A stretch of DNA of 64,000 nucleotides from an uncultured archaeon (GCA_964480705.1 CAYZPC010000001.1:31297-95296); one strand, 5' to 3'. Shown: positions 3,208 through 42,562, numbered from the stretch's first letter. Numbers and translations: made by a program. Notes: generated from the sequence alone by a model not told the origin.

Positions 3208-3252
3208 ATAATTTTGATGCATCGTTCCAACACGGAAAATTGTTAGAAAAAG

Positions 3253-3336
3253 TGCAGGGAGCAGGATTCGAACCTGCGAAGGCACTAAGCCAGTGCGGCC
3301 TAAACGCACTCCGGTTGACCGCTACGGTATCCCTGC
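3253..3336 (-). tRNA. tRNA-Leu (anticodon TAG), class II, no encoded CCA
   Basis: RC: GCAGGGA acceptor, anticodon stem GTGCG-CGCAC with loop TTTAGGC, long variable arm, T-arm GCAGG-TTCGAAT-CCTGC. Confidence 0.8.
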
Positions 3337-11573: not shown

Positions 11574-12437
11574 CTACTTCAGATATTTGATGGTGTTCTG
11601 GAATATTCCGCTGGTGACGCCCGGGTTGTAGTTGAAGTAAATGACTTTTCCTCCGCCTAATTGGGCTTGTTCCACAATCGCGGGGAAGTTCTTTCCCGTT
11701 CGTGCGTCTTCAATGTAGGCGATTTCATTTCCCGTGACACCTACATCAAATACTTCCAATGCTAAATATCCTGCTTCGGCTTGTGCGGGCACGCGTTCAA
11801 TTCCCTGCATGATGGGGTGTCGGTAGTCTTGTTGCCAAATAACTCCAATCACTCCAATCGGTCGTTTGCACGTGGGTTGTCCGTCTAAAATAATGTCACA
11901 ATTCACCGGAACAATATTTCCGAAGTTGGCTTTCCAACCTAAAATATCCAATGCGCCCGGTTGTTCAATTCCTGAATCCTTAATGATGACGAGTTTTCCT
12001 CCCGTCTTCACGTAGTTTTGCAACGCGTCTCCCAACTGTCGGGGAATGGCTTTGCTGATTTGTCCGGTTTGATCTAAAACAACTATATCAAATTGGGCGA
12101 GCTGATTTTCAGGATTGTTGGAAAACCCTTCCGCTGCCCGTATGAGTGGACTTCCCACTAAATCCTTGTTGGCGTTCAGCACGGCAATCATTTCGGGCGA
12201 AGGTGCGCCGATGATGAGCATTCGTGCGGTTGCGCTGGGGGATATTGCTCCCACAATGGGTCCGATAACGGGTGTAGATGTGTCAATCACTCCCAACCTT
12301 GCGAGGAGTAAGAATCCAATCACCACAATCAAAATAATGGGTATAATGGCTTCCAAGTTGAAATGCAATCGGCTGCCGATTCCATCATCAATGGGTGGTA
12401 AATCCGCGCCACCGCCATATGCATCTTCATTCGCCAT
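11574..12437 (-). CDS. Membrane-anchored extracytoplasmic protein (paralogous to 13076..14044)
   Basis: N-terminal TM IIPIILIVVIGFLLLA; shared blocks FDIVVLDQTG/FDLVIVTRAK and GGKLVIIKDSG/GGRLVWTGDAG with the second paralog. Confidence 0.55.
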   Translation of the reverse strand: MANEDAYGGGADLPPIDDGIGSRLHFNLEAIIPIILIVVIGFLLLARLGVIDTSTPVIGPIVGAISPSATARMLIIGAPSPEMIAVLNANKDLVGSPLIRAAEGFSNNPENQLAQFDIVVLDQTGQISKAIPRQLGDALQNYVKTGGKLVIIKDSGIEQPGALDILGWKANFGNIVPVNCDIILDGQPTCKRPIGVIGVIWQQDYRHPIMQGIERVPAQAEAGYLALEVFDVGVTGNEIAYIEDARTGKNFPAIVEQAQLGGGKVIYFNYNPGVTSGIFQNTIKYLK

Positions 12438-18397: not shown

Positions 18398-18469
18398 TGG
18401 ACCCGGGAGGGGTTGAACCTCCGACCTTCGCTGTATAAGAACGCTGCTCTACCACTGAGCTACGGGTCC
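18398..18469 (-). tRNA. tRNA, probable tRNA-Ile (anticodon TAT) with G27.A43 mismatch
   Basis: RC: GGACCCG-TA-GCTC-AGTGGTA-GAGC-A-GCGTT-CTTATAC-AGCGA-AGGTC-GGAGG-TTCAACC-CCTCC-CGGGTCC-A. Confidence 0.6.
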
Positions 18470-28166: not shown

Positions 28167-28766
28167 ATGAGCCTTCCCATGTCTACCAAAGCACGTATTC
28201 CCAATGGCGCCAAGCTCATTATTATCGTCTTGAGCTTCTTTCTCGCCCTCACGTTTGTGCGTGCGGTCACTCTACAAGCCGACTCTCAAGAGGTTGTTTT
28301 TTCAGGTTCGCAATCTATTGTGTTTCCCGTTTCGGTGACGAACCCCACTAATTCACCCGTCATTCCTAACTTTTTAGCGGACGGACCATTCACTATTATT
28401 CTTCCTTCCGATAACGCCCCCATTCCTGCGAACGATTCCAAATCGTATGCGTTACAATTTTTCCCCGCCTCCACATTCAAAGTGGGAGATGTGTATGCTG
28501 GACAGTTGCGCGTAATTACGGGCGATGGTGAAACAGCCCTTCCTCTCACTTTTCGCATGAACCCCGCTCCCTTGTTCAACAACCCTTCCAATCTTTCGGC
28601 GCCAGTTTCCCCTACGGGATTCTTTTCGTTTGCCTCATTGTTCAATTTGTCCTTTTTTTCATCCCTTTCAATTGTGGATGTTTTCTTGGTGGTTATTGTC
28701 ATTGTTCTTACCGTTGCACTTGTTGCGCGTATCAAGAATAGATTGATTGGGGAGGAAAAATCATGA
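28167..28766 (+). CDS. Surface protein 1 of a three-gene operon (signal peptide plus C-terminal TM)
   Basis: Signal LIIIVLSFFLALTFVRAVT; C-terminal helix VFLVVIVIVLTVALVA. Confidence 0.6.
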   Translation: MSLPMSTKARIPNGAKLIIIVLSFFLALTFVRAVTLQADSQEVVFSGSQSIVFPVSVTNPTNSPVIPNFLADGPFTIILPSDNAPIPANDSKSYALQFFPASTFKVGDVYAGQLRVITGDGETALPLTFRMNPAPLFNNPSNLSAPVSPTGFFSFASLFNLSFFSSLSIVDVFLVVIVIVLTVALVARIKNRLIGEEKS

Positions 28767-30559
28767 ACACACTCTTGAAAGTTCTTGCATTCATTGCCGC
28801 GGTGTTATTTGTCGCGCCTGCGGTGCACGCCATTCCCTACACTGCTTCCTTTACTTCTCCCTCAGCCGTCTCGCTTCTCGAGAATATGTCGGTTTCTATT
28901 CCCCTTGAAATTCAAAACAATGATTTTCAGTCTCATACGGTTACATTGTCCGGTTTCTCCGATGAAGCAACCGTGAAAATTATCCCCAATTTGAAAACAT
29001 TCACCATTGCGCCCTATGAAAAAGTCACGGTTGGAATTACTGTGCGCGCCACCGATGATGCCGACCATGAAACGGTTCCCGCCCGAGTGCGAGTCAGTTT
29101 AGATGGTGACACGCGCGATGTTCCCCTCACAGTTTATGTGGGTTCCAATCCCTTCCTCACGCTCACGACATTCAATTCTACCGTGTGCGCCAATGAGTAT
29201 GTGGAAAGTATTTCTGTTTTAGTGGAAAATCGCACGAGCGCTGACACTCAAGTAACATTGCGCGCCGAGCAATCCATTTTGCTTCCCTTCACGGAAGAAG
29301 AAACCCTCACGTTAGAGAATGGAATTGAACAATTTGTCACCTTCCGCGTGAACGTTTCCCCTGCGAATGCGGGTAAATACACGGGAACCATTTTCGCGGA
29401 CACGAATCAAATCGTGGTGGTGCGTCCATTCGTTGTGAGTGTAAATGATTGCCCCGAAACGGTGGAGAAAACCATTTCTCTCAAATTGCCCACGAAAGTG
29501 TATGATTTAACCAAATTGAAAACCACGAATGTTCCTCTTTCGGTGAAAAACCTCACCGATGAAGCACAGTTTGTGGAATTCTTTGTGGACACGGACATGG
29601 GGTACACGCTCAATAGCATCACCATTGCCCCCCGCGACACGGCTAACATTAATCTCTCCCTCACTCCCGACACGAGTATTCCCGCGGGAAAGAAAGCCAT
29701 CACCATTACAGCCATTGCCGGCGGGTATCGCATTGCGCAATCGTTGAATGTGAATGTGCTTCCTTTGGATTTGTTAGAGTTGGAAAACGTTTCCTCCATT
29801 TACACGCTCTTTGAGGGAGATTCATCCTCAATGGATTTCATCGTGCACAATCGCGGAGATTCATCTCAAAGCATTTCATTGGGAATGCAGTCCAGCGTCT
29901 CCGATATCACATCCACTTTTACCCCTGCGAATGTGACCGTGTCACCCGGAAAGTCCGTGCGTGTCCAACTCACACTCACTGCGAATGAACACGTTTCGGT
30001 GACGCGCGTGAATACTTCTATTGTTGCGAATGGAAACAAGTCCAGTGCCACTCTTCCCTTGTCCTATGTAGTGGAACCCAACCCCACTGCCTTAGAAGGG
30101 GCATTGAAGTTTGTGAGCATTCCAAAAGAAATCTCCCTGAACGCAGACGAACAGAAAGAAATCACCATTACGTTGCGCAACGAGTCCGACACTGCCATTA
30201 CGGGCGTTCGCTTCCGCTTGTTGGGAGTGAGCGGCGCTAACATTAGTGTTGTGGGCCCTGCCTCCGCCACGTTGGCACCGTATGAGACGCAATCCTTCAC
30301 GTTACGTGTTGTCACACAAGAAGACACTCCTTCCGGAGTCTATTCTCCTATTCTCATCGCGCAGGGCGACAACGGCTCCGGCCGCGCTCCCATGAGTATT
30401 CGCGTGAATGATGGTTTCGTGAATGGACTCTTGACGGGTTTAGTCACGTTTGCCAATGAGCGTGCGGGAATTTTGGGTTTCATTGTTCTCGTGATTCTCG
30501 CGGGATATTATATTTTTTCCCGCTCCGAGAAACGCTCTCCTGTTTGGACGGCGAAATAG
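28763..30559 (+). CDS. Surface protein 2 (598 aa, signal peptide, repeated beta-rich domains, C-terminal TM)
   Basis: Start overlaps the upstream stop by 4 nt; MNTLLKVLAFIAAVLFVAPAVHA; C-terminal GILGFIVLVILAGYYIF. Confidence 0.65.
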   Translation: MNTLLKVLAFIAAVLFVAPAVHAIPYTASFTSPSAVSLLENMSVSIPLEIQNNDFQSHTVTLSGFSDEATVKIIPNLKTFTIAPYEKVTVGITVRATDDADHETVPARVRVSLDGDTRDVPLTVYVGSNPFLTLTTFNSTVCANEYVESISVLVENRTSADTQVTLRAEQSILLPFTEEETLTLENGIEQFVTFRVNVSPANAGKYTGTIFADTNQIVVVRPFVVSVNDCPETVEKTISLKLPTKVYDLTKLKTTNVPLSVKNLTDEAQFVEFFVDTDMGYTLNSITIAPRDTANINLSLTPDTSIPAGKKAITITAIAGGYRIAQSLNVNVLPLDLLELENVSSIYTLFEGDSSSMDFIVHNRGDSSQSISLGMQSSVSDITSTFTPANVTVSPGKSVRVQLTLTANEHVSVTRVNTSIVANGNKSSATLPLSYVVEPNPTALEGALKFVSIPKEISLNADEQKEITITLRNESDTAITGVRFRLLGVSGANISVVGPASATLAPYETQSFTLRVVTQEDTPSGVYSPILIAQGDNGSGRAPMSIRVNDGFVNGLLTGLVTFANERAGILGFIVLVILAGYYIFSRSEKRSPVWTAK

Positions 30560-30568
30560 TGCGAAAGG

Positions 30569-32062
30569 GTGATGGATTACATGAGTAAGCGTTGGGCGCA
30601 GCCTTCAACACGCTCCACTCCGGAGTTATTCATTAAGCGCAGCCTCATTCGACCGGTGCACGTCATGCTGATCCTCGCGGGAATGGCGTTGCTTCTTTCC
30701 GCGGCGCAGATGCACGCGTACACACCTTCTTCCACTGCCATTTTCTCATCTGTTTCAACGCAGGAATTATTTCTCCAGCCCGATTCGGAGTTGCCCGTGG
30801 ATATTTTCGTCAACACCCCGTATGGGAAACCCGTGAATGTTTCTTTTTCCACTGATTACCCTTCGCACGTATTGCGTGTCGATGGAGAATTGCATTCCAT
30901 TTCCACGTCTTTTCCGTTGCAACGCGAGATGCGCGTGTATGCGAATTGGAACGCTCCGCAGGGAGATTATTTAGTTACCTTGCGCGTGCACGTGCAAGAT
31001 GGTGGACAATCTTTCACTGAAACCCACCCCATTCGTGTTCACGTTGGAGAAAAGGGTTTGCTCACGTACTACACCACATCCAACACTACCCTTCCCGCGC
31101 GTGTTTCCGCGCCCATTTTTTCCACGAATGCCATTAATCTCTCCCGCACCGAGCGCACCACCGTTTCGGTTTCATTTCTCAATACGGGTTCCTCGACTGA
31201 TTATTTGGTTCGTCTCGCCGAACCCTCGTTGAATTTGCTTGTTCACGTGGTGAATGAAACCCATCGCCTCGTGGAAGACGGTTCGCGTGTCACATCTTGG
31301 TTGGATATTACGGCGCGCACGAATACTCCCTTTGGTGAAACTCCCTTGTATGTGGAAGCATACAATATGGTTTCCGGAGAAAAAACTCTTTTGGGCGTTG
31401 TCCGTGTGAATGTGTATGAGACATTCAACCTTGACGCGCGATTGCCTTTTCACTCATTTGTCGTTGAAGAGAATGATTTGATTGAAACCACTCTCTCGCT
31501 TGAAAATACGGAATACTCGGATGTGGATGTCATCATCGAGTCGAGTTCCTCACTCGCTCAGCCTGCCAATTCAACCATTCGTGTTCCGGCAAAAACTTCT
31601 ATTACCGTTCCTCTGTCCATTCACGCTTCCCCCTCACTGGGTGTGCGCGGCGACACATTGTATGTGATGAACCCCAATCTCACCGAGCAGGTTTCTTTTA
31701 CGGTTGAAACGGTTCCCCGCGGCACGTTGAAACCCATTGTTTCGGATGAGAATGCGAGAGGAAATGGTTCTCCTTTCACTCCAATTTCTGGCTTTGTTTC
31801 AGGAGTTTTTTCATCCGTGTGGGGATTGGTAATTATTGCGCTCGCCGGGTTGATTATTTTCTCTCAAAAATTTAGAGAGGGTGTCGTGGCTCGTTTGCCC
31901 AAGCCGGTTCCTCCTGCTAAAGCGCCTCCGGTTCCTAAACCGTCTTCACTTCCCGCACCATCTGCTCCTGCGCCCGTCCCATCCGCGCCTGCTCCAGGAA
32001 TTGTTTCAAATGTTCCTGTTCCCACTTCCAAAACGGATGCGACGCCGGCACAAAATAATTAA
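30569..32062 (+). CDS. Surface protein 3 (signal/anchor, C-terminal TM plus Pro-rich tail)
   Basis: VHVMLILAGMALLLSAA N-terminal helix; C-terminal VWGLVIIALAGLIIF then PKPVPPAKAPPVPKPSS. Confidence 0.6.
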   Translation: MMDYMSKRWAQPSTRSTPELFIKRSLIRPVHVMLILAGMALLLSAAQMHAYTPSSTAIFSSVSTQELFLQPDSELPVDIFVNTPYGKPVNVSFSTDYPSHVLRVDGELHSISTSFPLQREMRVYANWNAPQGDYLVTLRVHVQDGGQSFTETHPIRVHVGEKGLLTYYTTSNTTLPARVSAPIFSTNAINLSRTERTTVSVSFLNTGSSTDYLVRLAEPSLNLLVHVVNETHRLVEDGSRVTSWLDITARTNTPFGETPLYVEAYNMVSGEKTLLGVVRVNVYETFNLDARLPFHSFVVEENDLIETTLSLENTEYSDVDVIIESSSSLAQPANSTIRVPAKTSITVPLSIHASPSLGVRGDTLYVMNPNLTEQVSFTVETVPRGTLKPIVSDENARGNGSPFTPISGFVSGVFSSVWGLVIIALAGLIIFSQKFREGVVARLPKPVPPAKAPPVPKPSSLPAPSAPAPVPSAPAPGIVSNVPVPTSKTDATPAQNN

Positions 32063-32086
32063 TGAGAATTATTATTTCTGATTGAA

Positions 32087-34018
32087 TTATTTTCGATAAC
32101 TAGTCGCAATGCCCTCATCTAAGCATGAGAGGCACGACACTAAGTTGCTGCACACAGTGGTACAGTCTTTTTCGAGTTTGAAGTTTGGAATGGCCATTTG
32201 GTAAATGTGGCTTGCATTAATGTTGCTTGTTTTATCGGTGGTTAATTTTTCTGTGCTCAAAGAAAAATTGAATTTGTATTCTTTGTATCCGCGGATTTTG
32301 AGAACGGCTTGATACTCTCCTGGGTAAATAGGATTGTATTCCTGCAATTCCGTTGGTTTTCCATTCGGGTCGCGTTTACTTACGGCTGCAGCTGTTGTCA
32401 AATATTTTCCAGGGTTGGCTTGGTTGAACAACAATCCCTCATATGCTTTGTCGCGTGTCGTCGCTGGTTCATTTGCTTCAGGCTGTTGGAGTGGTTCGGC
32501 CAACCAGGATGTTCGGTCATTCACATGAATGAGTTCAAGTGTCATCATGTCATGAATGGCATCATTCGAGAGGCGATCATCCGTGTTGGGGTCGTTGTCC
32601 GGGTCGTTTAATTCAGGATTATTTTTGCGTAATACGTTGAGCGTGTCATTCGTGAGTTTAAATCGGAAAATGTCTTTGGAAGGGTCTTCGCTTGCTTTGA
32701 TGCGCACGGTTTGAATAGTGTCTTCGGTTCCCGGCACGTTGGTTTGTTTGATGCGGTACAACACCGTGATTTTTCCGCGCTGGGATGAGAGGAACGTGGC
32801 TTTGTAATCAAGCACGCTGGCTAATGGAGTAATGTCTCCGAAATCGGCTAAAATTTCTTTGCTGTGAGTGACTGTTTTCCAATAGGGAACAAATGTTCCA
32901 TTTTCCGCGGCACATAATCGCATTCCAAGAGTGAGTTTTCCCATTCCGGGTAAATTTACAATTTTATTGGACGCGTATTCTTTCGTAGTGTTGGGGTGCG
33001 CGGTGTTGTATGCATCTACTGCTCCCGTAATCGTACTAACCGGTTGTCCAATGTCGGTTCCAAACAATCCGACCGTTTGAATGGTTGTATAAATATCAAT
33101 TCCTTGTCCTATTAAATTGCGAAAAATATCCCATCCAATACTTTGTACGGTGTCAATGCGCGACGCGACACTTGCGGCAATGGTTTCATTATTGTTGAAG
33201 TGCCAAATTTGCAGCAAATAAACAGCGTTTCCTTTTGAATCTTGGAAAATAATATTTCTCGGGCTTAGTGCATATTCGGATGTCGTTGTAGTGGAGATTT
33301 TCTCATCCAAGTCTGCTCCCCCTTCGCGAAATTCAGGAGAGGAATCTCCTAATGTAATGAATTGGGGCGCGTCATTTCCAATTTCACAATATTCATTCAA
33401 CACCGGCGTTGCTTCCGCCACTTGCTGAGCAGTGGGTGTTGCGGTTGGAGCGGTGGGTGTGGTCGTTCCGGGCGTGGATGGATTTACTGCTTGTAACACG
33501 GGCAAGCTTGCTTCGAGTTTAGGCAAAAAATCCGTTGCCATGTAGGCTCCTTCCGTGTCATCGAGCTGGCAATCGCTGTTTGATAATAATCCTGAGAAGC
33601 TCATGTTGCTTGATTCTAATTCCGATTCATAATCTAATGCATACTGCGCCGAGAACGCGTCCCACACGCTGGTTTCACAATCAATCGCAGAATAGGTGTC
33701 TCCAATTTTAACGTAAACAATTCCTTCCGTGTTATCCGTTTCTTCTTCCACAAAGAGATACGTGTTGTTAATGGTTGGATCTGCTCCTTCGGTGAAAATG
33801 AATGCTTGTTGTCCGGCTAAATCGCGCATTTTTCTCAATAGGGGAACAACATTGTCTCCTGATGAGAGCGCGGGAATATTTTTTCCCCCAATGCTTTCTT
33901 GTCGAATAACCGTGTATCCTCCGCTGCCCTGTGCTTCGGAGTCGGTGGCATAAAAGAGGAATAACCCCCCTACTACGAGTGTTAGAATGATTCCGGCGGC
34001 GAGATAATGGGGTTGCAT
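32087..34018 (-). CDS. Large N-terminally anchored extracellular protein (643 aa)
   Basis: MQPHYLAAGIILTLVVGGLFLFYATDSEA; T/P-rich linker; no recognisable catalytic motif. Confidence 0.6.
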   Translation of the reverse strand: MQPHYLAAGIILTLVVGGLFLFYATDSEAQGSGGYTVIRQESIGGKNIPALSSGDNVVPLLRKMRDLAGQQAFIFTEGADPTINNTYLFVEEETDNTEGIVYVKIGDTYSAIDCETSVWDAFSAQYALDYESELESSNMSFSGLLSNSDCQLDDTEGAYMATDFLPKLEASLPVLQAVNPSTPGTTTPTAPTATPTAQQVAEATPVLNEYCEIGNDAPQFITLGDSSPEFREGGADLDEKISTTTTSEYALSPRNIIFQDSKGNAVYLLQIWHFNNNETIAASVASRIDTVQSIGWDIFRNLIGQGIDIYTTIQTVGLFGTDIGQPVSTITGAVDAYNTAHPNTTKEYASNKIVNLPGMGKLTLGMRLCAAENGTFVPYWKTVTHSKEILADFGDITPLASVLDYKATFLSSQRGKITVLYRIKQTNVPGTEDTIQTVRIKASEDPSKDIFRFKLTNDTLNVLRKNNPELNDPDNDPNTDDRLSNDAIHDMMTLELIHVNDRTSWLAEPLQQPEANEPATTRDKAYEGLLFNQANPGKYLTTAAAVSKRDPNGKPTELQEYNPIYPGEYQAVLKIRGYKEYKFNFSLSTEKLTTDKTSNINASHIYQMAIPNFKLEKDCTTVCSNLVSCLSCLDEGIATSYRK

Positions 34019-34086: not shown

Positions 34087-36039
34087 TTAAATCCGCTTAT
34101 TTTCCTTTTCTTTCCAAAATCCCTTTATTTTTTCAGCGGGGCTCGTGGAGAGTTCATACTCGTGGGCGGGAGGAAAACAGTCCTTGTAGTTGGTTTGCGT
34201 GTAGCGCTTGTCCAGAAACACCACCACTCCCTCGTCTGTGGGGGTGCGAATAACCCTTCCAGCGGCTTGCAATGCTTTATTCATCGCGGGATAAATGTAT
34301 CCGTATTGCCATCCTTTCTGGAAGCGTTTTTCATAATAATTAACCAGTGCTTGCGTTTCCAAATTCATTTCCGCGAGGGGAATCCCCACGACAATTACTC
34401 CTAACAATTCGTTTCCAGGAAAATCCAATCCTTCTCCAAAACTCCCGCTCGTGCACGCCAGCAACACGGCTCCAAATCCGCGCGAGTGTTGTTTGAACTC
34501 ATTCAACAATTTTTCGGTTTCGTGCATTTTCATTCCTTCGCGCTGAAATAATAATTGTCGCGGCGTGTAGTCCTGCATTTTTCTCCCAATGTTATCCAAT
34601 AATTGAAACGATGGAAAAAATACTACGGTGTTTCCCGGAATTTGGTTGACCATTTTTCCGGTCTCGGATGCAAATGTGGTGAATGTTTCCTCGCTGCGTT
34701 CCGTAAATTTAGTCGATGCAAGGGGAGCAATCATTTGCAACCTATTTTGTTTGGGAAACGGAGAGGGGTAATACCCGTGTTCTGTTTTTTCTTTATTTAC
34801 TCCAATAATATCCGCAAACATTTTCGTGGGATGCAGGGTGCCTGACATGAGTAAGCATCCGTGCATTTTCTCCAACACTTTTTTGGTAAGCGGAGCCGGG
34901 TCGAGTGCTTTTACACCAACCGAATAATCATCTGCGTATCCCCATTTTTTGACTACTCGTGCGAGTCCTTCGCTTTCATTCGCCCATTTTTCTAAAAATT
35001 CTCCCACTTGAATAAGGAAAGAGGAATCTTTTCCGCTTTTTTCTAAATAATCCACTCCGCGCATTTCGCATTGCAGCGCAAATTCTTCCACATCCAGTTT
35101 TTCGGCTAAAAAAGTGCTCCATTTTTTTTCATCTAATAATTCTTCATTTCCACTCATTTTTTTTCCGTGCGCGCGCAAATGATGCTCCATGCGCGAGAGA
35201 ATTTTTTCCATTTCTTCATCTTTCAAATAGTGTGCTTCCTCTGCCGCTCGTGTGAGTTGTTTCGTGTTGAGCGTCGTTGAAAGTAATCCGCGCACACGCT
35301 CGGGAAGGTTGTGCGCTTCATCCACAATCAATAGACAATTTTCAGGTTTCTTTCCTAATTTTGGCAGCACGAGTTCACTGACACTCGGAGAAAAAATGTG
35401 ATAGTAATCCGCAATAATCACATTTGCTTTTTTGGCTAATTCCATGCTGGTTTCAAATGGACACATGGCCCAGGGCTGCATGCCCATTTGAAATGTGCTT
35501 GATTCATCTTTGATTTCTGCAGAGGAATGAACACCTTTCATTCTCGTGGAAAACTCTTGCCGGGCAATTTTGGCTTTTTCGCGTTGCAGCGTATCATATC
35601 CTTTCGCGTGTCCGTATGGAACGCACGTTTGGCTTTCTCTCTTCTTTCGGCACATCTCATAAAATCCTCTCCCTTCTTTCTGCTGGGTTTGCTCATCAAT
35701 GCATAAGTGTTTCTTCCCCACCAAATCCACCACGCGGAGTTTCAAATCATATTTAGCATTTATTCCACGTAACACGTCTACTGCAATAGCGTGCTGAGCG
35801 TTTTTGGGGGTGAGAAAAATAATCGTGAGAGTAGGGTCCTTTTGCAGTGCCACTCCAAGTGCGGCGCTCAAACTCGCGTCCGTTTTTCCTAATCCTGTTT
35901 CCGCATGTGCGAGGAAAATTTTTCCATTTTCAAATGCTTCATGTGCATCTATGATGAGTTTTTCCTGTCCTTCGCGCGGAGCATCAAACCGGAATGGAAT
36001 GGTTTTGGGCAGCATGCTAGAGTTACGGCCGGCACGCAT
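34087..36039 (-). CDS. xpd: XPD/Rad3-family (DinG-like) Fe-S DNA helicase
   Basis: AETGLGKT Walker A; LIVDEAHNLP DEAH box; 4-Cys Fe-S insert; QAAGRVIRTPTDEGVVVFLDKRY motif VI. Confidence 0.88.
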   Translation of the reverse strand: MRAGRNSSMLPKTIPFRFDAPREGQEKLIIDAHEAFENGKIFLAHAETGLGKTDASLSAALGVALQKDPTLTIIFLTPKNAQHAIAVDVLRGINAKYDLKLRVVDLVGKKHLCIDEQTQQKEGRGFYEMCRKKRESQTCVPYGHAKGYDTLQREKAKIARQEFSTRMKGVHSSAEIKDESSTFQMGMQPWAMCPFETSMELAKKANVIIADYYHIFSPSVSELVLPKLGKKPENCLLIVDEAHNLPERVRGLLSTTLNTKQLTRAAEEAHYLKDEEMEKILSRMEHHLRAHGKKMSGNEELLDEKKWSTFLAEKLDVEEFALQCEMRGVDYLEKSGKDSSFLIQVGEFLEKWANESEGLARVVKKWGYADDYSVGVKALDPAPLTKKVLEKMHGCLLMSGTLHPTKMFADIIGVNKEKTEHGYYPSPFPKQNRLQMIAPLASTKFTERSEETFTTFASETGKMVNQIPGNTVVFFPSFQLLDNIGRKMQDYTPRQLLFQREGMKMHETEKLLNEFKQHSRGFGAVLLACTSGSFGEGLDFPGNELLGVIVVGIPLAEMNLETQALVNYYEKRFQKGWQYGYIYPAMNKALQAAGRVIRTPTDEGVVVFLDKRYTQTNYKDCFPPAHEYELSTSPAEKIKGFWKEKENKRI

Positions 36040-36100
36040 TTAAGCACGTTTCAACGAAAATTCCGACGCGTTTTTTAATGATGAATGGTTTGTTCAGCGT

Positions 36101-36877
36101 ATGCCCGAACTCTTAGACTTGTCTCTCCCCACCTCCAGCGGGTTGTCTGCCGAAAAATCGAAGCATGCCGTGCGGCGTGTTCCCACGGGCATACCTGGTT
36201 TTGATGATTTGATTCAGGGTGGTTTTGAAGAGAAAACAAATACTCTTGTAGCGGGCTACGCGGGCACGGGCAAGACTACTTTTTCGATGCAGTTTTTGTA
36301 TAATGGTGCGACGCAGTGGAACGAACCTGGCGTCTATTTGAGTTTTGCTGAGAGTAAAGAAAGTATTTACAATCACTGCATGAATTTTGGGTGGGATTTT
36401 TATGCGTTGGAAAAGCAAGGTCTTGCGCGCCACTTATTTTACAAAGCCCACCAAGTCAACAAGCTCTTAGAAGAGGGCGGCGGCACCGTGCGCGATACAA
36501 TTGCAGAGATTGGTGCCAAGCGCCTGGTGATTGATTCCATTACCGCGTATGGATTGTTGTTTCGTGATGATTACAAGCAGCGCGAAGCATTATTGTTGTT
36601 TTTTGATATGCTGGTGAAGTGGGGTTGCACGAGTTTGATTATTGCCGAACAACTTACTGGTATTCAGGATGCGCGCGCCGGGGAAATTGGCTTTTTGACG
36701 GATGGAATCATCTCTTTTTCGTATGCGCAAGTAGAAGATGACGTGGGCCGGCGTACGCGACAGCACCAGATGGAAGTCTTGAAGATGCGCGGCACGAACC
36801 ATTATAATGGAATTATTGAAATCCAGTTCACTAAGCAGGGATTAGTCTGCCATAAAGCCGTTCGCGACGGAGAATAG
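36101..36877 (+). CDS. KaiC/RadA-like RecA-superfamily ATPase (single-domain KaiC homolog)
   Basis: LVAGYAGTGKTTFSMQFLYNGA Walker A and KaiC-like layout. Confidence 0.75.
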   Translation: MPELLDLSLPTSSGLSAEKSKHAVRRVPTGIPGFDDLIQGGFEEKTNTLVAGYAGTGKTTFSMQFLYNGATQWNEPGVYLSFAESKESIYNHCMNFGWDFYALEKQGLARHLFYKAHQVNKLLEEGGGTVRDTIAEIGAKRLVIDSITAYGLLFRDDYKQREALLLFFDMLVKWGCTSLIIAEQLTGIQDARAGEIGFLTDGIISFSYAQVEDDVGRRTRQHQMEVLKMRGTNHYNGIIEIQFTKQGLVCHKAVRDGE

Positions 36878-36956
36878 GTTTTTTCGGGTTTTAATCAAAT
36901 TTTTCTCAAAAATTTGGCGCACTAGCCTTAAATCATTCTCTCGTGTATGAGAGTAT

Positions 36957-37775
36957 ATGTCCCCCATCCGTGTTTCCATTGAATCCCTGGGTAAAGTCCT
37001 CTCGCCCGAACAGCTAAAGCAGGCGGGTCTTCCGGCAAAAGGGGATTTGGAGCTTTCATCTTTAGAATCGAACACGTGGCTTCTCACTCTTTCTCCCGCG
37101 CAAACCGATTTACTGTCCTCGCAAAGCGCACCCCTTTCTCCCATGCAGCAGAAAGTGCTCCGCTTGCTCAAAACCCATCGCTTGCCTGATTTGATTGAGG
37201 GTCGTTTTGAGCGTTTTCTCGCCGATGAAGAGTTGAAAGCCTTCCGCGAACTCATTGAGCGTGGAAAAATTATTGTGATTAAATCCAATCCCAAATTTGA
37301 CAAGGGAATTTACCGCGAAGCCATGTCAGAAGAACTTCGCGCGGCCGTGCAAACACATGCTTCGCGCGGCGCTTCGTTTTCTCCGTCACCTGTGGAGAAA
37401 AAAATAGTCACTCACACGGTTGTTGAAGAGAAGCCCGTGGAGGAATACTCGCTCGTGAATGATGGTTTCATGGTTTTGCGCAGCGATGGTGCGGCAAAAG
37501 CGGCGAGTTTTGATTTGCAGGAAAGAATTCGCGCGGGTGAAGTGAAAGGAATCAAAACCTTTGATGGTTTTTACTATATTATTGAAAATTCTCTCTTGGA
37601 AAAGTTTACGCTGCCAGTCGTGAATGCGTTGAAGGCGAAAAAGCGCGAAGAGCTTGCACCCTTATCCCTCTCGCTGGCCATTCCTCCCTTGCTCACGCGC
37701 ATTGTTTTAGAGTTTGCTAAAGAAGATGGTCTCGTGATTGAGAAACAGAAGAATATGTTTGCGTACGTCGGATGA
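36957..37775 (+). CDS. Hypothetical protein with central winged-helix-like segment
   Basis: 272-aa ORF; QQKVLRLLKTHRLPDLIEGRFERFLADEELKAFRELIERGKIIV. Confidence 0.45.
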   Translation: MSPIRVSIESLGKVLSPEQLKQAGLPAKGDLELSSLESNTWLLTLSPAQTDLLSSQSAPLSPMQQKVLRLLKTHRLPDLIEGRFERFLADEELKAFRELIERGKIIVIKSNPKFDKGIYREAMSEELRAAVQTHASRGASFSPSPVEKKIVTHTVVEEKPVEEYSLVNDGFMVLRSDGAAKAASFDLQERIRAGEVKGIKTFDGFYYIIENSLLEKFTLPVVNALKAKKREELAPLSLSLAIPPLLTRIVLEFAKEDGLVIEKQKNMFAYVG

Positions 37776-37809
37776 ATTGGAAAATGCCCGCTGGATTTGG
37801 AGTGGATGA

Positions 37810-38199
37810 TTGATGCGTGTCCTCGTTCCTATTCTCTCTCATTCGGATGTGGATGATGTGTTTGTGCAGCATATTTCCGAACAAGCCTCGGTGGTGTATT
37901 TGCTCCTAGTTCTTGACCCCAAATCTGCCTCTGCATCGTTTGGTTTCAAAACCAGTGAAATAATGTCCGGCCGAGAGACCATGGATAAAATGAAGCTCAA
38001 AATTAAAGAAAACAAGCGCTTGTGCACGGACATTTTAGAATGGGGAAACACCCTTGAAAAGATTGCGCAGATTGCGGAGATGAAGCAAGTGGAAAAAATC
38101 CTCGTGTATAATGGAAAAAAGAATCCGTATTTTCAGCACGTGGTGAATGACATTCAGAAGTCAACGACCATTCCCATTGTCGCATTCCCTTTATCTTAA
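37810..38199 (+). CDS. Universal stress protein (UspA)-like
   Basis: MRVLVPILSHSD N-terminus and TTIPIVAFPL C-terminus fit the Usp alpha/beta pattern. Confidence 0.45.
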   Translation: MMRVLVPILSHSDVDDVFVQHISEQASVVYLLLVLDPKSASASFGFKTSEIMSGRETMDKMKLKIKENKRLCTDILEWGNTLEKIAQIAEMKQVEKILVYNGKKNPYFQHVVNDIQKSTTIPIVAFPLS

Positions 38200-38223
38200 A
38201 TACCTGAATTTTATTCTCTTGCA

Positions 38224-39246
38224 TTGATGACTCGCGCCAAACCTCGTTCTGCAGGTGGTTATTTGAGTAAGCGTAAACGAAATTTGCTCTTACAATCGCG
38301 CATTGCGTGGCTGCGCGAAGTGCATGAAAAACATCCGGATCTGATTCGACTGACGACTCGTGAAAAAATAGAAAAACGGTATGGCATTCCTAAAAACTAT
38401 TTGGAACAATTCTTTGAAGGAAATAATTCCACTCGACAGCTGCGCACAAAAATCGAATTGGCGCAGAGGGTGCTAAATGATCCTGACCGCAAGTGGTTGG
38501 CGGAGGATTATCGCATCTGGCCATATGCTCGAATTGTTGCTCTCGCCCCCACTAACTCTGCAAAAGAAATTTATCAAACAATTCTCGCTGAACGTGCTTC
38601 ATTTCCGGATGCTTCCCGGCGAAAAGTTTTCTCTATTCATGCTATCAGTAATTTGATTAAGACATTTCTTCTTCGCCCAGATGGAATGGGGGTGATTTGG
38701 GAGAAGCGTGCAAAGAAAATGAAAAATGCTCGTCCAGATAACCGTTTATCGGAAGAGGTGCGAAGAGAATTGGTTCAAGAAGCGATTCCCTTGTCCAATG
38801 CTTCAAAACGTGCTTTGGAGGTTAGTGATTTACTCTTGGACCGTTTAATCTATGAGTCGAGAAAAGTGAAAGGTTTAGAGAATTTGTCTCAAAGTGAGCG
38901 CATAACGCGTTGGAGAAAATTTGTCAGGGTATGTATGCATCGGTGGGTGATCGATGCTTTGCGGAAAAGAGATTTTCAAAGTCGACGCACTAGCCCGCTT
39001 AAACAAAAATTTGTTGAAGTGAGTGAGTTGCCATCCTCCAAGATTTCGGTTTCGCTTGATTCTCATTTGCCAACCGGTTTTAAGTTAACGCCAAAAGATA
39101 GGGAAGTCCTTGATTTGTTGCGGAGGGGTTTTACTAAAATTCAAATTGCTCGCGAATTAGGGCTTACTGCGCACGCGATTACGCTCAGACTATTTTCGCT
39201 GCGCAAGCGGATTAGCAAGGCTTCTCAAAAAAATTCAAAATTGTAA
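38224..39246 (+). CDS. Putative transcriptional regulator with C-terminal LuxR/GerE-type HTH
   Basis: LTPKDREVLDLLRRGFTKIQIARELGLTAHAITLRLFSLRKRI. Confidence 0.55.
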   Translation: MMTRAKPRSAGGYLSKRKRNLLLQSRIAWLREVHEKHPDLIRLTTREKIEKRYGIPKNYLEQFFEGNNSTRQLRTKIELAQRVLNDPDRKWLAEDYRIWPYARIVALAPTNSAKEIYQTILAERASFPDASRRKVFSIHAISNLIKTFLLRPDGMGVIWEKRAKKMKNARPDNRLSEEVRRELVQEAIPLSNASKRALEVSDLLLDRLIYESRKVKGLENLSQSERITRWRKFVRVCMHRWVIDALRKRDFQSRRTSPLKQKFVEVSELPSSKISVSLDSHLPTGFKLTPKDREVLDLLRRGFTKIQIARELGLTAHAITLRLFSLRKRISKASQKNSKL

Positions 39247-40374
39247 AAAGTGCACTTCGTCCATTTTTTCGCGGTACATTTCTACATCGTCATTAAATTT
39301 TTTCATGAATGTAGTCATTTTTTCCACCGTGATTTGTTTCAATTCTCCGGAGAGCATTTTTCCGCTTTTGTAATCATCATGAATTTTTTTCAATTCATTA
39401 TCATTCTCAACTAAATGTTGTTTCAGCAATTCATACACCATGTCTTTCTCAATTTCCGCACCCAGTTTTCGTTGTTCTTCCGCTGTTTTTCGTCCACCGG
39501 TGACAGCGCCCTTGATTACTTTTTCAACCGCTTTCAAATCATCCGGCAGGGTAATGTTTCCTTTGGGATTTGATTTGCTCATCTTCGCATTTCCATCCAT
39601 GGATGGGAGAAATTTGTGATACATCGAAGAAATGGGCATGAAGCGCTGCGTGCTTTCCATCTTATGCAAGTAATCTCGACACAAGCGCACGTGGGGTTCC
39701 TGGTCTAATCCCACGGGAATAATTCCTGGTGTTGGGCGTCCCGCTCTTTCTTGGGGGAAAATCATATCGCCTATTTGCGTGACCGCACTCATGATGCGTC
39801 CCGGGTCGGCGTTTCCATACACTCCTTTGAACTCGTTGAGCGTAATGCGTTGCGCGGCCTCAAATGCAAGTTTGGTTACCGTGCGGTTTTCGCTTTGAAA
39901 ATAAAAATGGGTTTTTTTGATGTCTAATCCCAACGCCAAATACGCTGGAATGTGAAATCGCATCGCGCGTTTTTTTCCTTCTTCAATGCTCACGCCGCGC
40001 GCCGCAGCGCTTTCCAAGTCTGCCACGAGAACAAATGTTTCTCCTCCCTGCTCTTGGAAATATTTTACATTTTCTACCACACTCTTGGTTCCAAAGTGGA
40101 GTTTTTCGGCGGAAGGCATGACTCCGGTTAGCACATAGAATGGTTTGTGATTTTTGATGCACTCGGAAATGCGTTTCATGTCGCGCCCCGCGAACACTAC
40201 CTCGCGGCGCATGAGTCGGTTGGGGTTGGGGAACATTTCCACGTTAAACGGTTCTAACCCAAAGTGCTGCGCCACTTGCTTGTAGTCCGAAATCAGGTTG
40301 TCTCCCCATGGGTCGAGTTGTTCGCTGGCCATACGTGTACAAGCGCACACGGCCTTTAAAATCGGGGGGTGCAA
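39235..40374 (-). CDS. trpS: Tryptophanyl-tRNA synthetase (archaeal/eukaryotic type)
   Basis: Class I fold; VGLDQEPHVRLCRDY (GxDQDPx); KMSKS; C-terminal SGKMLSGELKQ resembles TrpRS anticodon-binding helix. Confidence 0.75.
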   Translation of the reverse strand: MHPPILKAVCACTRMASEQLDPWGDNLISDYKQVAQHFGLEPFNVEMFPNPNRLMRREVVFAGRDMKRISECIKNHKPFYVLTGVMPSAEKLHFGTKSVVENVKYFQEQGGETFVLVADLESAAARGVSIEEGKKRAMRFHIPAYLALGLDIKKTHFYFQSENRTVTKLAFEAAQRITLNEFKGVYGNADPGRIMSAVTQIGDMIFPQERAGRPTPGIIPVGLDQEPHVRLCRDYLHKMESTQRFMPISSMYHKFLPSMDGNAKMSKSNPKGNITLPDDLKAVEKVIKGAVTGGRKTAEEQRKLGAEIEKDMVYELLKQHLVENDNELKKIHDDYKSGKMLSGELKQITVEKMTTFMKKFNDDVEMYREKMDEVHFLQF

Positions 40375-40380
40375 CCATCC

Positions 40381-40830
40381 TCATTCGATGAACTGTTTAA
40401 TGTGTTCAAGAATTATATCCAATTTTTCTTTGGGTAAAATGTCGCTAGTCTTTGGCAAATAGTGCCGACCAAATTCCGTATCCATCCACGTTTTTCCGTC
40501 AAAAGTAATTGGTTCGTCATGTCGCGGTTTCATGTGCCAGTGAACGTGAGGGTTGTATGGTTTTTCTTTGAACGCGTGATTCATGAGGCATGTCCAATTA
40601 AACAGCGTAAATGGAAATGCCTTTTTGAGACCCGTTTCAAGTTTTTCAGTCACGCGGTGAAAGTCAACCATCTCTTCATCCGTAAGTTTAGACAAACTTT
40701 CAACATGACGTTTGGAAGAAATGAGGCATCTTCCCAAATAATTTTGGTCCCAGCTCAGGAAAACGTTCCAGTGTTTCGTTTCAAAAATAGGGTATTCCTT
40801 GATTGGGCAGATGTGGCATTCTTTTTCCAT
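40381..40830 (-). CDS. HIT-family (histidine triad) hydrolase
   Basis: NPHVHWHMKPR HxHxHxx motif. Confidence 0.8.
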   Translation of the reverse strand: MEKECHICPIKEYPIFETKHWNVFLSWDQNYLGRCLISSKRHVESLSKLTDEEMVDFHRVTEKLETGLKKAFPFTLFNWTCLMNHAFKEKPYNPHVHWHMKPRHDEPITFDGKTWMDTEFGRHYLPKTSDILPKEKLDIILEHIKQFIE

Positions 40831-40952
40831 AATTTACTTGTGAAACGTAGAGATAAAATCCTATGTTTTATTTTTTTCGGCGGTTTACCTTCCGCCCGTT
40901 TTTATTCAGTTTATTCGTGTTCGTTTCGCACTCACTTTTGGAGGTCGTTTCT

Positions 40953-41801
40953 ATGGATCAAAAAGATGCGTTGGTTGTTTTTCAAGATACAAAAATTAGG
41001 AGAATATTACATAATAATGAATGGTTTTTTTCAGTCGTAGACGTGGTTGGTGCTTTGACAGATAGTCCAACGCCCCGACAATACTGGGGCAAAGTAAAGG
41101 ATAGGGAGTTCAACGAGATTCAGTTGTCCCCAATTTGGGTACAACTGAAATTACCTTCTTCGGACGGCAAACTATACGAAACCGACTGCGCCAACACCCA
41201 AAACATGTTCCGCATCATCCAATCCATCCCTTCTCCCAAAGCCGAGCCCTTCAAACAATGGTTAGCCAAAGTAGGCTATGAGCGCGTGAAAGAAATTGAA
41301 AACCCTGAATTAGCCCAAGCGCGCATGGTCGAAACCTACCGCGCGAAAGGATATTCCAATGAGTGGATTGAAAGACGTCTGCGTGGCATTGCCGTGCGGG
41401 ACGATTTGACGAATGAGTGGAAAAAACGCGATGTGAAAGAGGGAGTGGAGTTTGCCATCCTCACGGCGGAAATTTCTTCCGCCACATTCGGAATGACTCC
41501 AACCGAATACAAGGATTTCAAGGGGTTGAAAAAAGAAAACTTGCGCGACCACATGAATGATTTGGAGTTAATTTTTACCATGCTCGGAGAAGCATCCACT
41601 GCACACGTTGCGCGTGGAAAAGACGCGCAGGGTTTTGTTGAGAACCAGCAGGCCGCCGTGGTGGGTGGAACGATTGCAGGGAATGCGCGAAAGGAATTGG
41701 AAAATAAAAGTGGAGAAAAGATTTCCACATCTGAAAATTATCTTTCTGTTCCTGAGAGTCAGAAGCGTTTGGAGCGCTCGGCTAAAAAACACATTGAGTG
41801 A
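40953..41801 (+). CDS. Bro-N / DinD-like (DNA-damage-inducible protein D family) protein
   Basis: N-terminus IRRILHNNEWFFSVVDVVGAL fits Bro-N; C-terminal NEWKKRDVKEGVEFAILTAEISSATFGMTPTEYKDFKGL block. Confidence 0.55.
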   Translation: MDQKDALVVFQDTKIRRILHNNEWFFSVVDVVGALTDSPTPRQYWGKVKDREFNEIQLSPIWVQLKLPSSDGKLYETDCANTQNMFRIIQSIPSPKAEPFKQWLAKVGYERVKEIENPELAQARMVETYRAKGYSNEWIERRLRGIAVRDDLTNEWKKRDVKEGVEFAILTAEISSATFGMTPTEYKDFKGLKKENLRDHMNDLELIFTMLGEASTAHVARGKDAQGFVENQQAAVVGGTIAGNARKELENKSGEKISTSENYLSVPESQKRLERSAKKHIE

Positions 41802-41825
41802 ATAGTTTATTGGAGATGCTTCACG

Positions 41826-42296
41826 ATGGTCAAAAAGCGCTGGGATAAACCCAAATCGGACAATGCCTTCCTGAATGATGTTTCATTCATTGTTTTCGTC
41901 GTGCGTTTTAATTATCGGGTGGTTGAGAAGAAGTGGCCGGAAATAACGAAAGCGTTTCATCATTTTGATATTGCAAAGCTCTCCAAATTAGACGAAACGG
42001 ATGAAAAAACCATGGAAAAATTCTTGCGTGCGCCGGGAATGATAAAAAACAAGTGGAAAATGCAAAGCGTTATCATCAACGCCAAAAAGTGTGCGGAGAT
42101 TCAACGCGAACATGGAAGTGTGTTGAAGTGGATTGCTAAAGCCAAAAAAGAATACAAAAAATCCCCCTTGCTCGCTCCCGAATTGAGAGATATTTTCCGC
42201 GTGTTTAGGGGAATTGGCCCGATGACAAGCACGTGGCTGGAAAGTTTGTTCATGTCTGATAAATCGTATGTCGAGTATGAAATGCCCGACAAGTGA
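41826..42296 (+). CDS. tag: DNA-3-methyladenine glycosylase I (Tag)-like, divergent (lacks canonical N-terminal Zn-binding residues)
   Basis: Colinear with E. coli Tag core (FHHFDIAKLSKLDETD..IKNKWKMQSVIINAKK). Confidence 0.6.
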   Translation: MVKKRWDKPKSDNAFLNDVSFIVFVVRFNYRVVEKKWPEITKAFHHFDIAKLSKLDETDEKTMEKFLRAPGMIKNKWKMQSVIINAKKCAEIQREHGSVLKWIAKAKKEYKKSPLLAPELRDIFRVFRGIGPMTSTWLESLFMSDKSYVEYEMPDK

Positions 42297-42306
42297 GTTG
42301 TTGATC

Positions 42307-42329
42307 AAACTTTTTGGTAAAAAGTTTGG
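42307..42329. repeat. Palindrome CAAACTTTTTGGTAAAAAGTTTG preceded by TTGAT (A5/T5 family)
   Basis: 11 nt after the tag stop; near-identical copy at 53261. Confidence 0.6.
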
Positions 42330-42562
42330 TAGGGTATGAAATGCCGGACTAATATCAACTGCTTTGTGCAGGAATGCTTCGCCATCGTTCAAATCCGCAC
42401 GCGTAACAGTGCAGCGCCACACTTCCTTGTGCGGGGTGCACTATTTTTTTCGAGTGGCACGTGGGACATTTGCTCGCGCGCGTGGGGATCATAAAAGATA
42501 ACGACTTTTAGGTGTTGATAAATGCTTGCCAGCCAAATCGCCAGCAAAAATTATTCAAATGA

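Follow-up and report, generated by a model that had tools for sequence, protein, structure and literature searches.

A KaiC-like ATPase gene divergent from the XPD helicase gene in a lineage-specific neighbourhood of Iainarchaeia

A proposal by Makarova et al. (2017), cited in PMC5847659, casts KaiC-like ATPases as signalling hubs of archaea, and in Sulfolobus the aRadC proteins, single-domain hexamers of KaiC-like type, have been implicated in DNA repair (PMC4080772). The protein Bax1 ("binds archaeal XPB") forms a helicase-nuclease complex with XPB and not with XPD (PMC7293015), and XPB is also given as its partner in PMC4080772. Here, we describe a locus of an uncultured archaeon (GCA_964480705.1, CAYZPC010000001.1:31297-95296) in which the gene for an XPD-type helicase diverges from that for a KaiC-like ATPase. 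The window is the whole analysed stretch of 64,000 nucleotides (64 kb), and positions are counted from its first letter. The XPD gene lies on the minus strand. On the plus strand are the genes for the KaiC-like ATPase, a multi-winged-helix protein of 272 residues, a 129-residue protein with the predicted fold of universal stress proteins (Usp), and a 340-residue protein with a helix-turn-helix (HTH) domain best read as LuxR/GerE-type. All five open reading frames (ORFs) named in a preliminary description of the locus were recovered at the same coordinates, with gaps of 61, 79, 34 and 24 nucleotides between successive ORFs from XPD to the 340-residue protein.

The source of the DNA is an archaeon of Candidatus Diapherotrites/Iainarchaeum (Iainarchaeia, DPANN). 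Homologues of the studied genes carry the names Candidatus Diapherotrites or Candidatus Iainarchaeum, the thermosome subunit encoded in the window scores 805 bits, and the aminoacyl-tRNA synthetases are of archaeal type. We read the locus as a lineage-specific and largely ordinary neighbourhood of Iainarchaeia, composed of separately promoted units, and give this reading about an even chance. The most plausible functional core is formed by the KaiC-like ATPase together with the pair of multi-winged-helix and Usp-fold proteins.

Co-conservation was counted over 20 distinct loci, the related ones denoted L001 and so on. The arrangement of XPD on the minus strand, followed by the KaiC-like, 272-residue and 129-residue genes on the plus strand and by a convergent tryptophan-tRNA ligase (TrpRS) gene, is retained in nearly all loci across species of Iainarchaeia. 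The order is kept where the XPD proteins are 58-66% and the 272-residue proteins 43-57% identical, and the KaiC-like and 272-residue genes are adjacent in 20/20 loci. The TrpRS gene (39235-40332, minus strand; protein start MASEQL), assigned by NCBIfam, Pfam and synteny, is the conserved right-hand border of a variable slot that begins after the 129-residue gene. A member of the 340-residue family occupies this slot in six of the 20 loci (the window, L007, L008, L012/L015, L013 and L014). The survey of neighbourhood conservation proposed in the preliminary description thus returned a split answer: the KaiC-like, 272-residue and 129-residue genes are co-conserved with the divergent XPD gene, and the 340-residue gene is not.

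The intergenic regions contain promoters, predicted from sequence alone, at regular distances from the start codons. The TATA-like box TTTTTTAAT of the KaiC-like gene (36071-36079, plus strand), recognised in an intergenic alignment of 15 loci, starts 30 nucleotides upstream of the ATG; elsewhere the box reads TTTTATAA or TTTTATATA, and it is located approximately 25-30 nucleotides before the ATG in 15 species. Oligo-T tracts directly downstream of the KaiC stop codon (36878-36907, plus strand) constitute a putative archaeal terminator, and T-runs occur at the same place in most species. The 272-residue gene has the TATA-box heptamer CTTAAAT at 36927-36933 (plus strand), 30 nucleotides upstream of its ATG; a (C/T)CTTAAATC box about 30 nucleotides from this codon, preceded by oligo-T runs, is conserved in 16 loci. 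No TATA box of such type was found for the 129-residue gene in the gap that separates it from the 272-residue gene, which spans 3-74 nucleotides in 15 loci, and the two genes are probably co-transcribed. The CTTAAAT heptamer of the 340-residue gene (38195-38201, plus strand) overlaps the stop codon of the 129-residue gene and starts 32 nucleotides upstream of the ATG at 38227; the box CTTAAATA precedes this gene at the same distance in the window, L007 and L008. The heptamer of the XPD gene (36038-36044, minus strand) starts 29 nucleotides upstream of the ATG of Met9, and across 15 species this box is CTTAAA or ATTATA.

Because the KaiC-like, 272-residue and 340-residue genes have TATA boxes of their own and oligo-T tracts follow the KaiC-like gene, the four co-directional genes are unlikely to form one operon. 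The predicted units are XPD, the KaiC-like gene, the 272-129 bicistron and the 340-residue gene. The heptamer CTTAAAT occurs in three copies on the two strands of the window, against 9.6 +/- 2.9 expected, and all three start 29-32 nucleotides upstream of the start codons of XPD (Met9), the 272-residue gene and the 340-residue gene. It is rare in related loci too (0-4 copies per 12-21 kb), where it recurs at the XPD and 272-residue promoters. The heptamer may be the sign of a strong core promoter common to these genes, or of co-regulation; the pattern was noticed post hoc and is weighed lightly.

Several observations weigh against a functional unit of the KaiC-like, multi-winged-helix and Usp-fold proteins. 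From sequence alone, a terminator and a promoter of its own for the 272-residue gene are predicted downstream of the KaiC-like gene, which argues against strict co-transcription of the two, and the gap between these genes reaches 348 nucleotides in L027. Locus L011 lacks the 129-residue gene and L026 lacks an adjoining XPD gene. Furthermore, these genomes keep the gene order throughout the 15-kb region, which includes genes for secreted proteins, TrpRS, adenine glycosylase and MgtE. That genes stay adjacent is therefore a weak argument for a shared function, since slow rearrangement alone may explain it. The preliminary description put forward a link to stress or DNA damage, which is unsupported: its only basis is adjacency within this generally syntenic region.

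These observations lead to the alternative that the genes, a mix of housekeeping and lineage-specific ones, are functionally unrelated and adjacent only because these small genomes rearrange slowly, which we consider unlikely, though not negligibly so. It would account for the gene order kept from the secreted-protein genes to MgtE and for the separate predicted promoters of the XPD, KaiC-like, 272-residue and 340-residue genes. It is also consistent with the KaiC homologues of Micrarchaeota, Aenigmatarchaeota and Thermococci, which are not located beside XPD or homologues of the 272- and 129-residue genes. However, the 272- and 129-residue genes lie close together in every species, the adjacency of the KaiC-like and 272-residue genes is unbroken despite indels close by (the Bro-N and HIT genes and the slot of the 340-residue gene), and the XPD, 272-residue and 340-residue genes share a heptamer otherwise absent from the window.

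The KaiC-like ATPase (36101-36877, plus strand, 258 residues) consists of one PF06745 domain, which scores 177.4 bits against a cut-off of 26.6 and bears out the single-domain KaiC-type call of the preliminary description. It contains a Walker A motif GTGKT at residue 55, a Walker B motif VIDS at 143 and an RG motif at 229, and retains one of the two catalytic glutamates of KaiC (FAES versus FEES). Among solved structures in the PDB, its best scores are with KaiC (186 bits over the whole sequence, 119 for the CI domain), PH0186 (115.6 bits) and PH0284 (101 bits). None of the NCBIfam models for archaeal KaiC subfamilies, RadA, RadB and ArlH exceeds its cut-off (KaiC_arch_3, 131.7 vs 249.45; RadA, 32 vs 259; RadB, 20 vs 278), nor does PRK09302 for the duplicated CI and CII domains of circadian KaiC (approximately 500 residues; 138.8 vs 408 bits). 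By its sequence, the ATPase is a member of the KaiC family without a named subfamily and, in the narrow sense, no paralogue of RadA or RadB.

The KaiC-like protein could also be envisaged as an aRadC-type recombination mediator of the RecA family that acts with XPD, the multi-winged-helix protein being its DNA-binding accessory. The Sulfolobus aRadC hexamers (PMC4080772), the divergent pairing of XPD and KaiC-like genes in about 16 lineages, and a nearby adenine glycosylase gene speak for this reading. Nevertheless, aRadC Sso2452 scores 65 bits and RadA 22.6 bits against the values above for KaiC and PH0186, and the RadA and RadB models are far below their cut-offs. Moreover, L026 has the KaiC-272-129 genes without an adjoining XPD gene, and a Bro-N gene sits between XPD and the KaiC-like gene in L021. 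A role as a recombination mediator is thus improbable.

The multi-winged-helix protein (36957-37775, plus strand) and the Usp-fold protein (ORF 37810-38199, plus strand; ATG at 37813, from which it has 128 residues) match nothing in Pfam or NCBIfam. Their homologues, 39 clusters for the former and 23 for the latter, are found solely in metagenome-assembled genomes (MAGs) of Diapherotrites or unclassified archaea. An AlphaFold2 model of the 272-residue protein, built from 38 sequences, has a predicted local distance difference test (pLDDT) score of 80.5 and a predicted template modelling (pTM) score of 0.44. In the model, a small β-rich N-terminal domain (residues 1-50) is followed by winged helices at residues 62-121 and 211-270, between which lie a disordered linker (134-153) and a very highly conserved α/β segment (158-212). 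The model bears out the earlier winged-helix call, and no specific family can be named. An AbrB/SpoVT-like N-terminal domain, suggested by a motif and the secondary structure, gained no support at the level of sequence, as profiles of the sub-alignments matched nothing in the PDB or Pfam.

The predicted structure of the 129-residue protein (pLDDT 92.3, pTM 0.88) has the α/β fold of Usp proteins, and the gene is under very strong purifying selection, with a ratio of non-synonymous to synonymous substitution rates (dN/dS) of 0.016. No Pfam family, Usp (PF00582) included, matches it at E<=0.1, and MJ0577 is reached with the family profile only at E=2. The ATP loop G-x2-G-x9-G(S/T), which reads GSHGKTNLKEILLGS in MJ0577, aligns to NGKKN----EYFQH and is thus replaced and shortened. 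The invariant residues GFK..EI..GR and KRLC.DILEWG are peculiar to the family. The earlier description as Usp-like therefore holds for the predicted fold, and not for the Pfam match or the ATP-binding motif. A metagenome scan with the alignment of this family found three loci only. An argument for insertion versus deletion in the neighbouring slot, drawn from the C-terminal tail of the protein, was dropped, since the tails vary independently of the content of the slot.

The XPD gene was identified in the preliminary description, and Pfam domains and the ranking of PDB matches agree with that assignment. The protein is an XPD/Rad3-type 5'-3' iron-sulphur (FeS) helicase in which DEAD_2 (66.5 bits), HBB (Arch/HBB, 46.2 bits) and Helicase_C_2 (142.2 bits) each exceed their cut-offs. 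It contains the FeS cysteines C113, C130, C139 and C193, the motif GLGKT at 49 and DEAH at 240. The NCBIfam model TIGR00604 (rad3) scores 221.8 bits, narrowly under its cut-off of 246.95; the solved structures rank as Thermoplasma XPD (160 bits), eukaryotic XPD (84 bits) and DinG (38 bits), which favours XPD over DinG. The gene was listed at 34087-36039 (minus strand). The listed ATG lies inside the conserved CTTAAA(T) box, and the eight codons from it to Met9 (36016-36039) show no in-frame conservation elsewhere, whereas the N-terminus MLPxxIPF beginning at Met9 is common to 15 species. Because the upstream stretch is not kept in frame and this N-terminus is shared, the sequence comparison places the true start at Met9. 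The gene then spans 34087-36015 and encodes 642 residues, with leaderless-type geometry.

The preliminary description regarded the missing Bax1 gene as unusual on the premise that archaeal XPD is commonly operonic with Bax1. The premise is wrong: Bax1 belongs with XPB (PMC4080772; PMC7293015), and an XPD gene without adjoining Bax1 is what would be expected. The XPD gene is flanked by the KaiC-like gene and by a gene for a 643-residue protein without a Pfam domain. The latter is the last of three large genes at 28763-34018 (598, 497 and 643 residues) that have signal- or transmembrane-like ends, lack Pfam domains and probably encode surface proteins. The three genes are kept upstream of XPD in close relatives and diverge fast, with 88-93% identity compared to 97-98% in neighbouring genes.

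We propose the following tentative picture of the locus. The leaderless XPD gene would encode an ordinary repair helicase, linked to the other genes at most by a shared core-promoter architecture. The KaiC-like gene, back-to-back with XPD and with its own predicted TATA box and oligo-T tract, would encode a probably hexameric signalling or remodelling ATPase, by analogy with the archaeal KaiC-like hubs. The predicted bicistron would supply two partners: the multi-winged-helix protein may serve as a DNA-binding protein or adaptor of the ATPase, and the Usp-fold protein, which has lost the canonical ATP-binding motif, may be a small regulatory subunit alongside it. The 340-residue protein would be a stand-alone DNA-binding regulator, separately promoted, present in a minority of genomes and dispensable for the core. 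In a more ambitious version, XPD, the multi-winged-helix/Usp-fold bicistron and, in loci that have it, the LuxR-type gene would constitute a small regulon of Iainarchaeia defined by CTTAAAT as an otherwise avoided core-promoter heptamer. The KaiC-like ATPase encoded between them would be an ATP-driven switch coupling a cellular signal to XPD expression, in a KaiC-hub module specific to the lineage, and the rapidly evolving LuxR-type paralogues would be interchangeable outputs; we give this version a slim chance.

The gene of the 340-residue protein (ORF 38224-39246, plus strand; 339 residues from the ATG at 38227) differs from its neighbours in distribution and rate of evolution. Loci L001 and L002 encode an identical KaiC-like protein and have flanks that are 97.5% identical to the window, yet they lack the 340-residue gene: the segment 38180-39228, which holds the whole gene, is absent from them in blastn comparison. 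They also lack 40335-41825, with the HIT and Bro-N genes. Over the region 38180-42334, which takes in both indels, identity to these strains falls from 97.5% to 90-93% across the TrpRS and adenine glycosylase genes. This points to a recombination tract, and the region is a local hotspot of recombination and indels. Positional orthologues in L012-L014 are approximately 30% identical to the window protein, compared to 65-89% for neighbouring proteins, and the dN/dS between the window and L007 is 0.575, compared to 0.016-0.10 for twelve neighbouring genes. Since it is absent from near-identical strains and evolves at such a rate, the gene is a dispensable, rapidly evolving accessory under relaxed constraint. 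A second gene of 339 residues in L007 was considered as a paralogue and rejected, as it has no similarity to the 340-residue protein.

The Bro-N gene of the window (40863-41801, plus strand; Pfam 41.5 bits) is positioned between the HIT and adenine glycosylase genes, as in L016. In L018, it is located between the TrpRS and glycosylase genes, and L001 and L007 lack it. With these shifts in position, it behaves as mobile genes do.

Only three close relatives of the 340-residue protein emerged from a word-indexed search of 5.8 billion proteins. HMMER with the family profile yielded 114 matches among 1.84 billion cluster representatives, about 40 of them full-length (300-340 residues). The family alignment (A4, 38 sequences) has conserved motifs over the full length, with members of approximately 320 residues. 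The single sequence scores 20.6 bits with GerE (PF00196), below the cut-off of 23.5. Within the family, 31 of the 38 members match the Pfam GerE model, with 3.6e-10 as the best E, and 20 match Sigma70_r4_2; the family profile reaches VraR, NarL and GerE at about 1e-8, and sigma-H at 5e-6. The HTH domain covers approximately 50 C-terminal residues (286-335) and is best read as LuxR/GerE-type with likeness to sigma-70 region 4. It belongs securely to the HTH superfamily, and the profile comparisons favour the LuxR type over sigma region 4. The profile search proposed with the preliminary description thus upheld the LuxR-type call at the level of the family, on the matches of its members and its profile to GerE, VraR and NarL, while the single sequence stays sub-threshold. 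A reading as a sigma factor was rejected: TIGR02937 scores 19.8 against 42.9 bits and aligns with the C-terminal part alone, and LuxR scores better family-wide.

The N-terminal sensory domain that was also sought is not detectable. Residues 1-282, represented by 16 family members, gave no match in Pfam or among solved structures, and no receiver, autoinducer-binding or ligand domain was found among them. A match of the full profile to CENP-B (E 7.8e-4), which would indicate an N-terminal HTH, disappeared when the N-terminal sub-alignment was used and was discarded. Related HTH domains occur in other contexts. Two metagenomic proteins, P0068 (740 residues) and P0084 (903 residues), contain up to 12 tandem LuxR-like HTH copies matching residues 289-329 of the 340-residue protein. 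In L011, a 243-residue protein (11586-12317, minus strand) has a sigma-70-region-4/LuxR-like C-terminal HTH, and the 340-residue profile matches this part only (E 2.8e-4). Its gene occupies another variable slot, between genes for a CDP-alcohol phosphatidyltransferase and a tRNA-binding-domain protein.

All named members of the 340-residue family are from Diapherotrites/Iainarchaeum, with several paralogues per MAG (for example PHH08_05265 and PHH08_02135), and some already carry the NCBI name "LuxR C-terminal-related transcriptional regulator". By sequence relationship, the protein is a member of a paralogous family restricted to Iainarchaeia. Because the named full-length homologues are confined to this lineage and form paralogues within genomes, the horizontal transfer from bacteria suggested in the preliminary description is unsupported as a recent event.

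The same evidence bears on the model of the preliminary description, a four-gene operon at 36101-39246 for stress or DNA-damage signalling, with a LuxR-type output of bacterial origin and coupled to XPD. The short gaps and the common strand stand, and the order recurs in L007, L012, L013 and L014; the CTTAAAT box shared by the XPD, 272-residue and 340-residue genes and the LuxR-type HTH also agree with the model. The single operon does not stand. The 340-residue gene is absent from 14 of the 20 loci, near-identical strains included, which largely refutes the model; its dN/dS of 0.575, its predicted TATA box and the predicted T-rich terminator after the KaiC-like gene oppose it as well. With no detectable sensor domain, homologues named only in Iainarchaeia and the Bax1 premise wrong, we regard the model as very unlikely. 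An origin of the 340-residue gene from a mobile element or virus inserted before the TrpRS gene, of which it would be a remnant or cargo, suggested by its sharply bounded presence-absence polymorphism, the nearby Bro-N gene counted as mobile, and a basic, HTH-rich, fast-evolving product, is hardly credible, as no relative occurs on 2.9 million viral contigs, the 1-kb segment contains no integrase, transposase or flanking repeat, and positional orthologues occupy the same slot even where the 272-residue protein is 65% identical.

The main value of the analysis lies in the corrected annotation, which removes a false Bax1 anomaly and mends the start codon of XPD. Two Iainarchaeia families recorded as hypothetical receive predicted folds, multi-winged-helix and motif-less Usp. 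The LuxR-type regulator becomes a dispensable, fast-evolving and lineage-restricted paralogue rather than a recent bacterial import. If the KaiC-like, multi-winged-helix and Usp-fold trio is a functional unit, it would provide another concrete and testable example of the proposed KaiC-based signalling networks in archaea, from a DPANN lineage whose regulatory repertoire is very small.

Two tRNA genes elsewhere in the window were recorded. A tRNA-Ile with the anticodon TAT (UAU) at 18398-18469 (minus strand) is uncommon and hints at decoding of AUA without a modified CAU tRNA. A tRNA-Leu(TAG) at 3252-3336 (minus strand) was called by ARAGORN, whereas Rfam at its gathering threshold did not report it.

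The XPD protein has the same domain architecture, FeS cysteines, motif I and DEAH box as the archaeal XPD proteins of Thermoplasma acidophilum (2VSF, 4A15) and Sulfolobus (3CRV), and differs from them only in just missing the TIGR00604 cut-off. The KaiC-like ATPase resembles PH0186 (2ZTS), PH0284 (2DR3) and the CI domain of KaiC, as each is formed by one RecA-like domain of approximately 250 residues with Walker A and B and RG motifs. It differs from the two-domain clock KaiC in its single domain and in FAES in place of FEES, and its scores place it at a distance from aRadC Sso2452, ArlH, RadA and RadB.

The 272-residue protein shares the presence of at least two winged helices per chain with tandem winged-helix proteins such as ScpB, the ESCRT-II subunits, the C-terminus of SelB and the winged-helix arrays of RPC34 and TFIIIC. 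It has no sequence similarity to them, however, and possesses an additional β-rich N-terminal domain and the conserved segment 158-212. With template modelling scores (TM-scores) of 0.2-0.28 and the pTM of 0.44, the domain type alone is shared with these proteins, not the architecture. The 129-residue protein differs from the universal stress proteins MJ0577 (1MJH) and A. fulgidus Usp (3QTB), since it has neither a Pfam Usp match nor the ATP motif. The 340-residue family ends, as LuxR/FixJ/NarL regulators do, in an HTH, for which the GerE type is favoured. Unlike them, it contains a family-specific N-terminal region of approximately 280 residues in place of a receiver or sensor domain, is named only in Iainarchaeia with several paralogues per genome, and evolves very fast.

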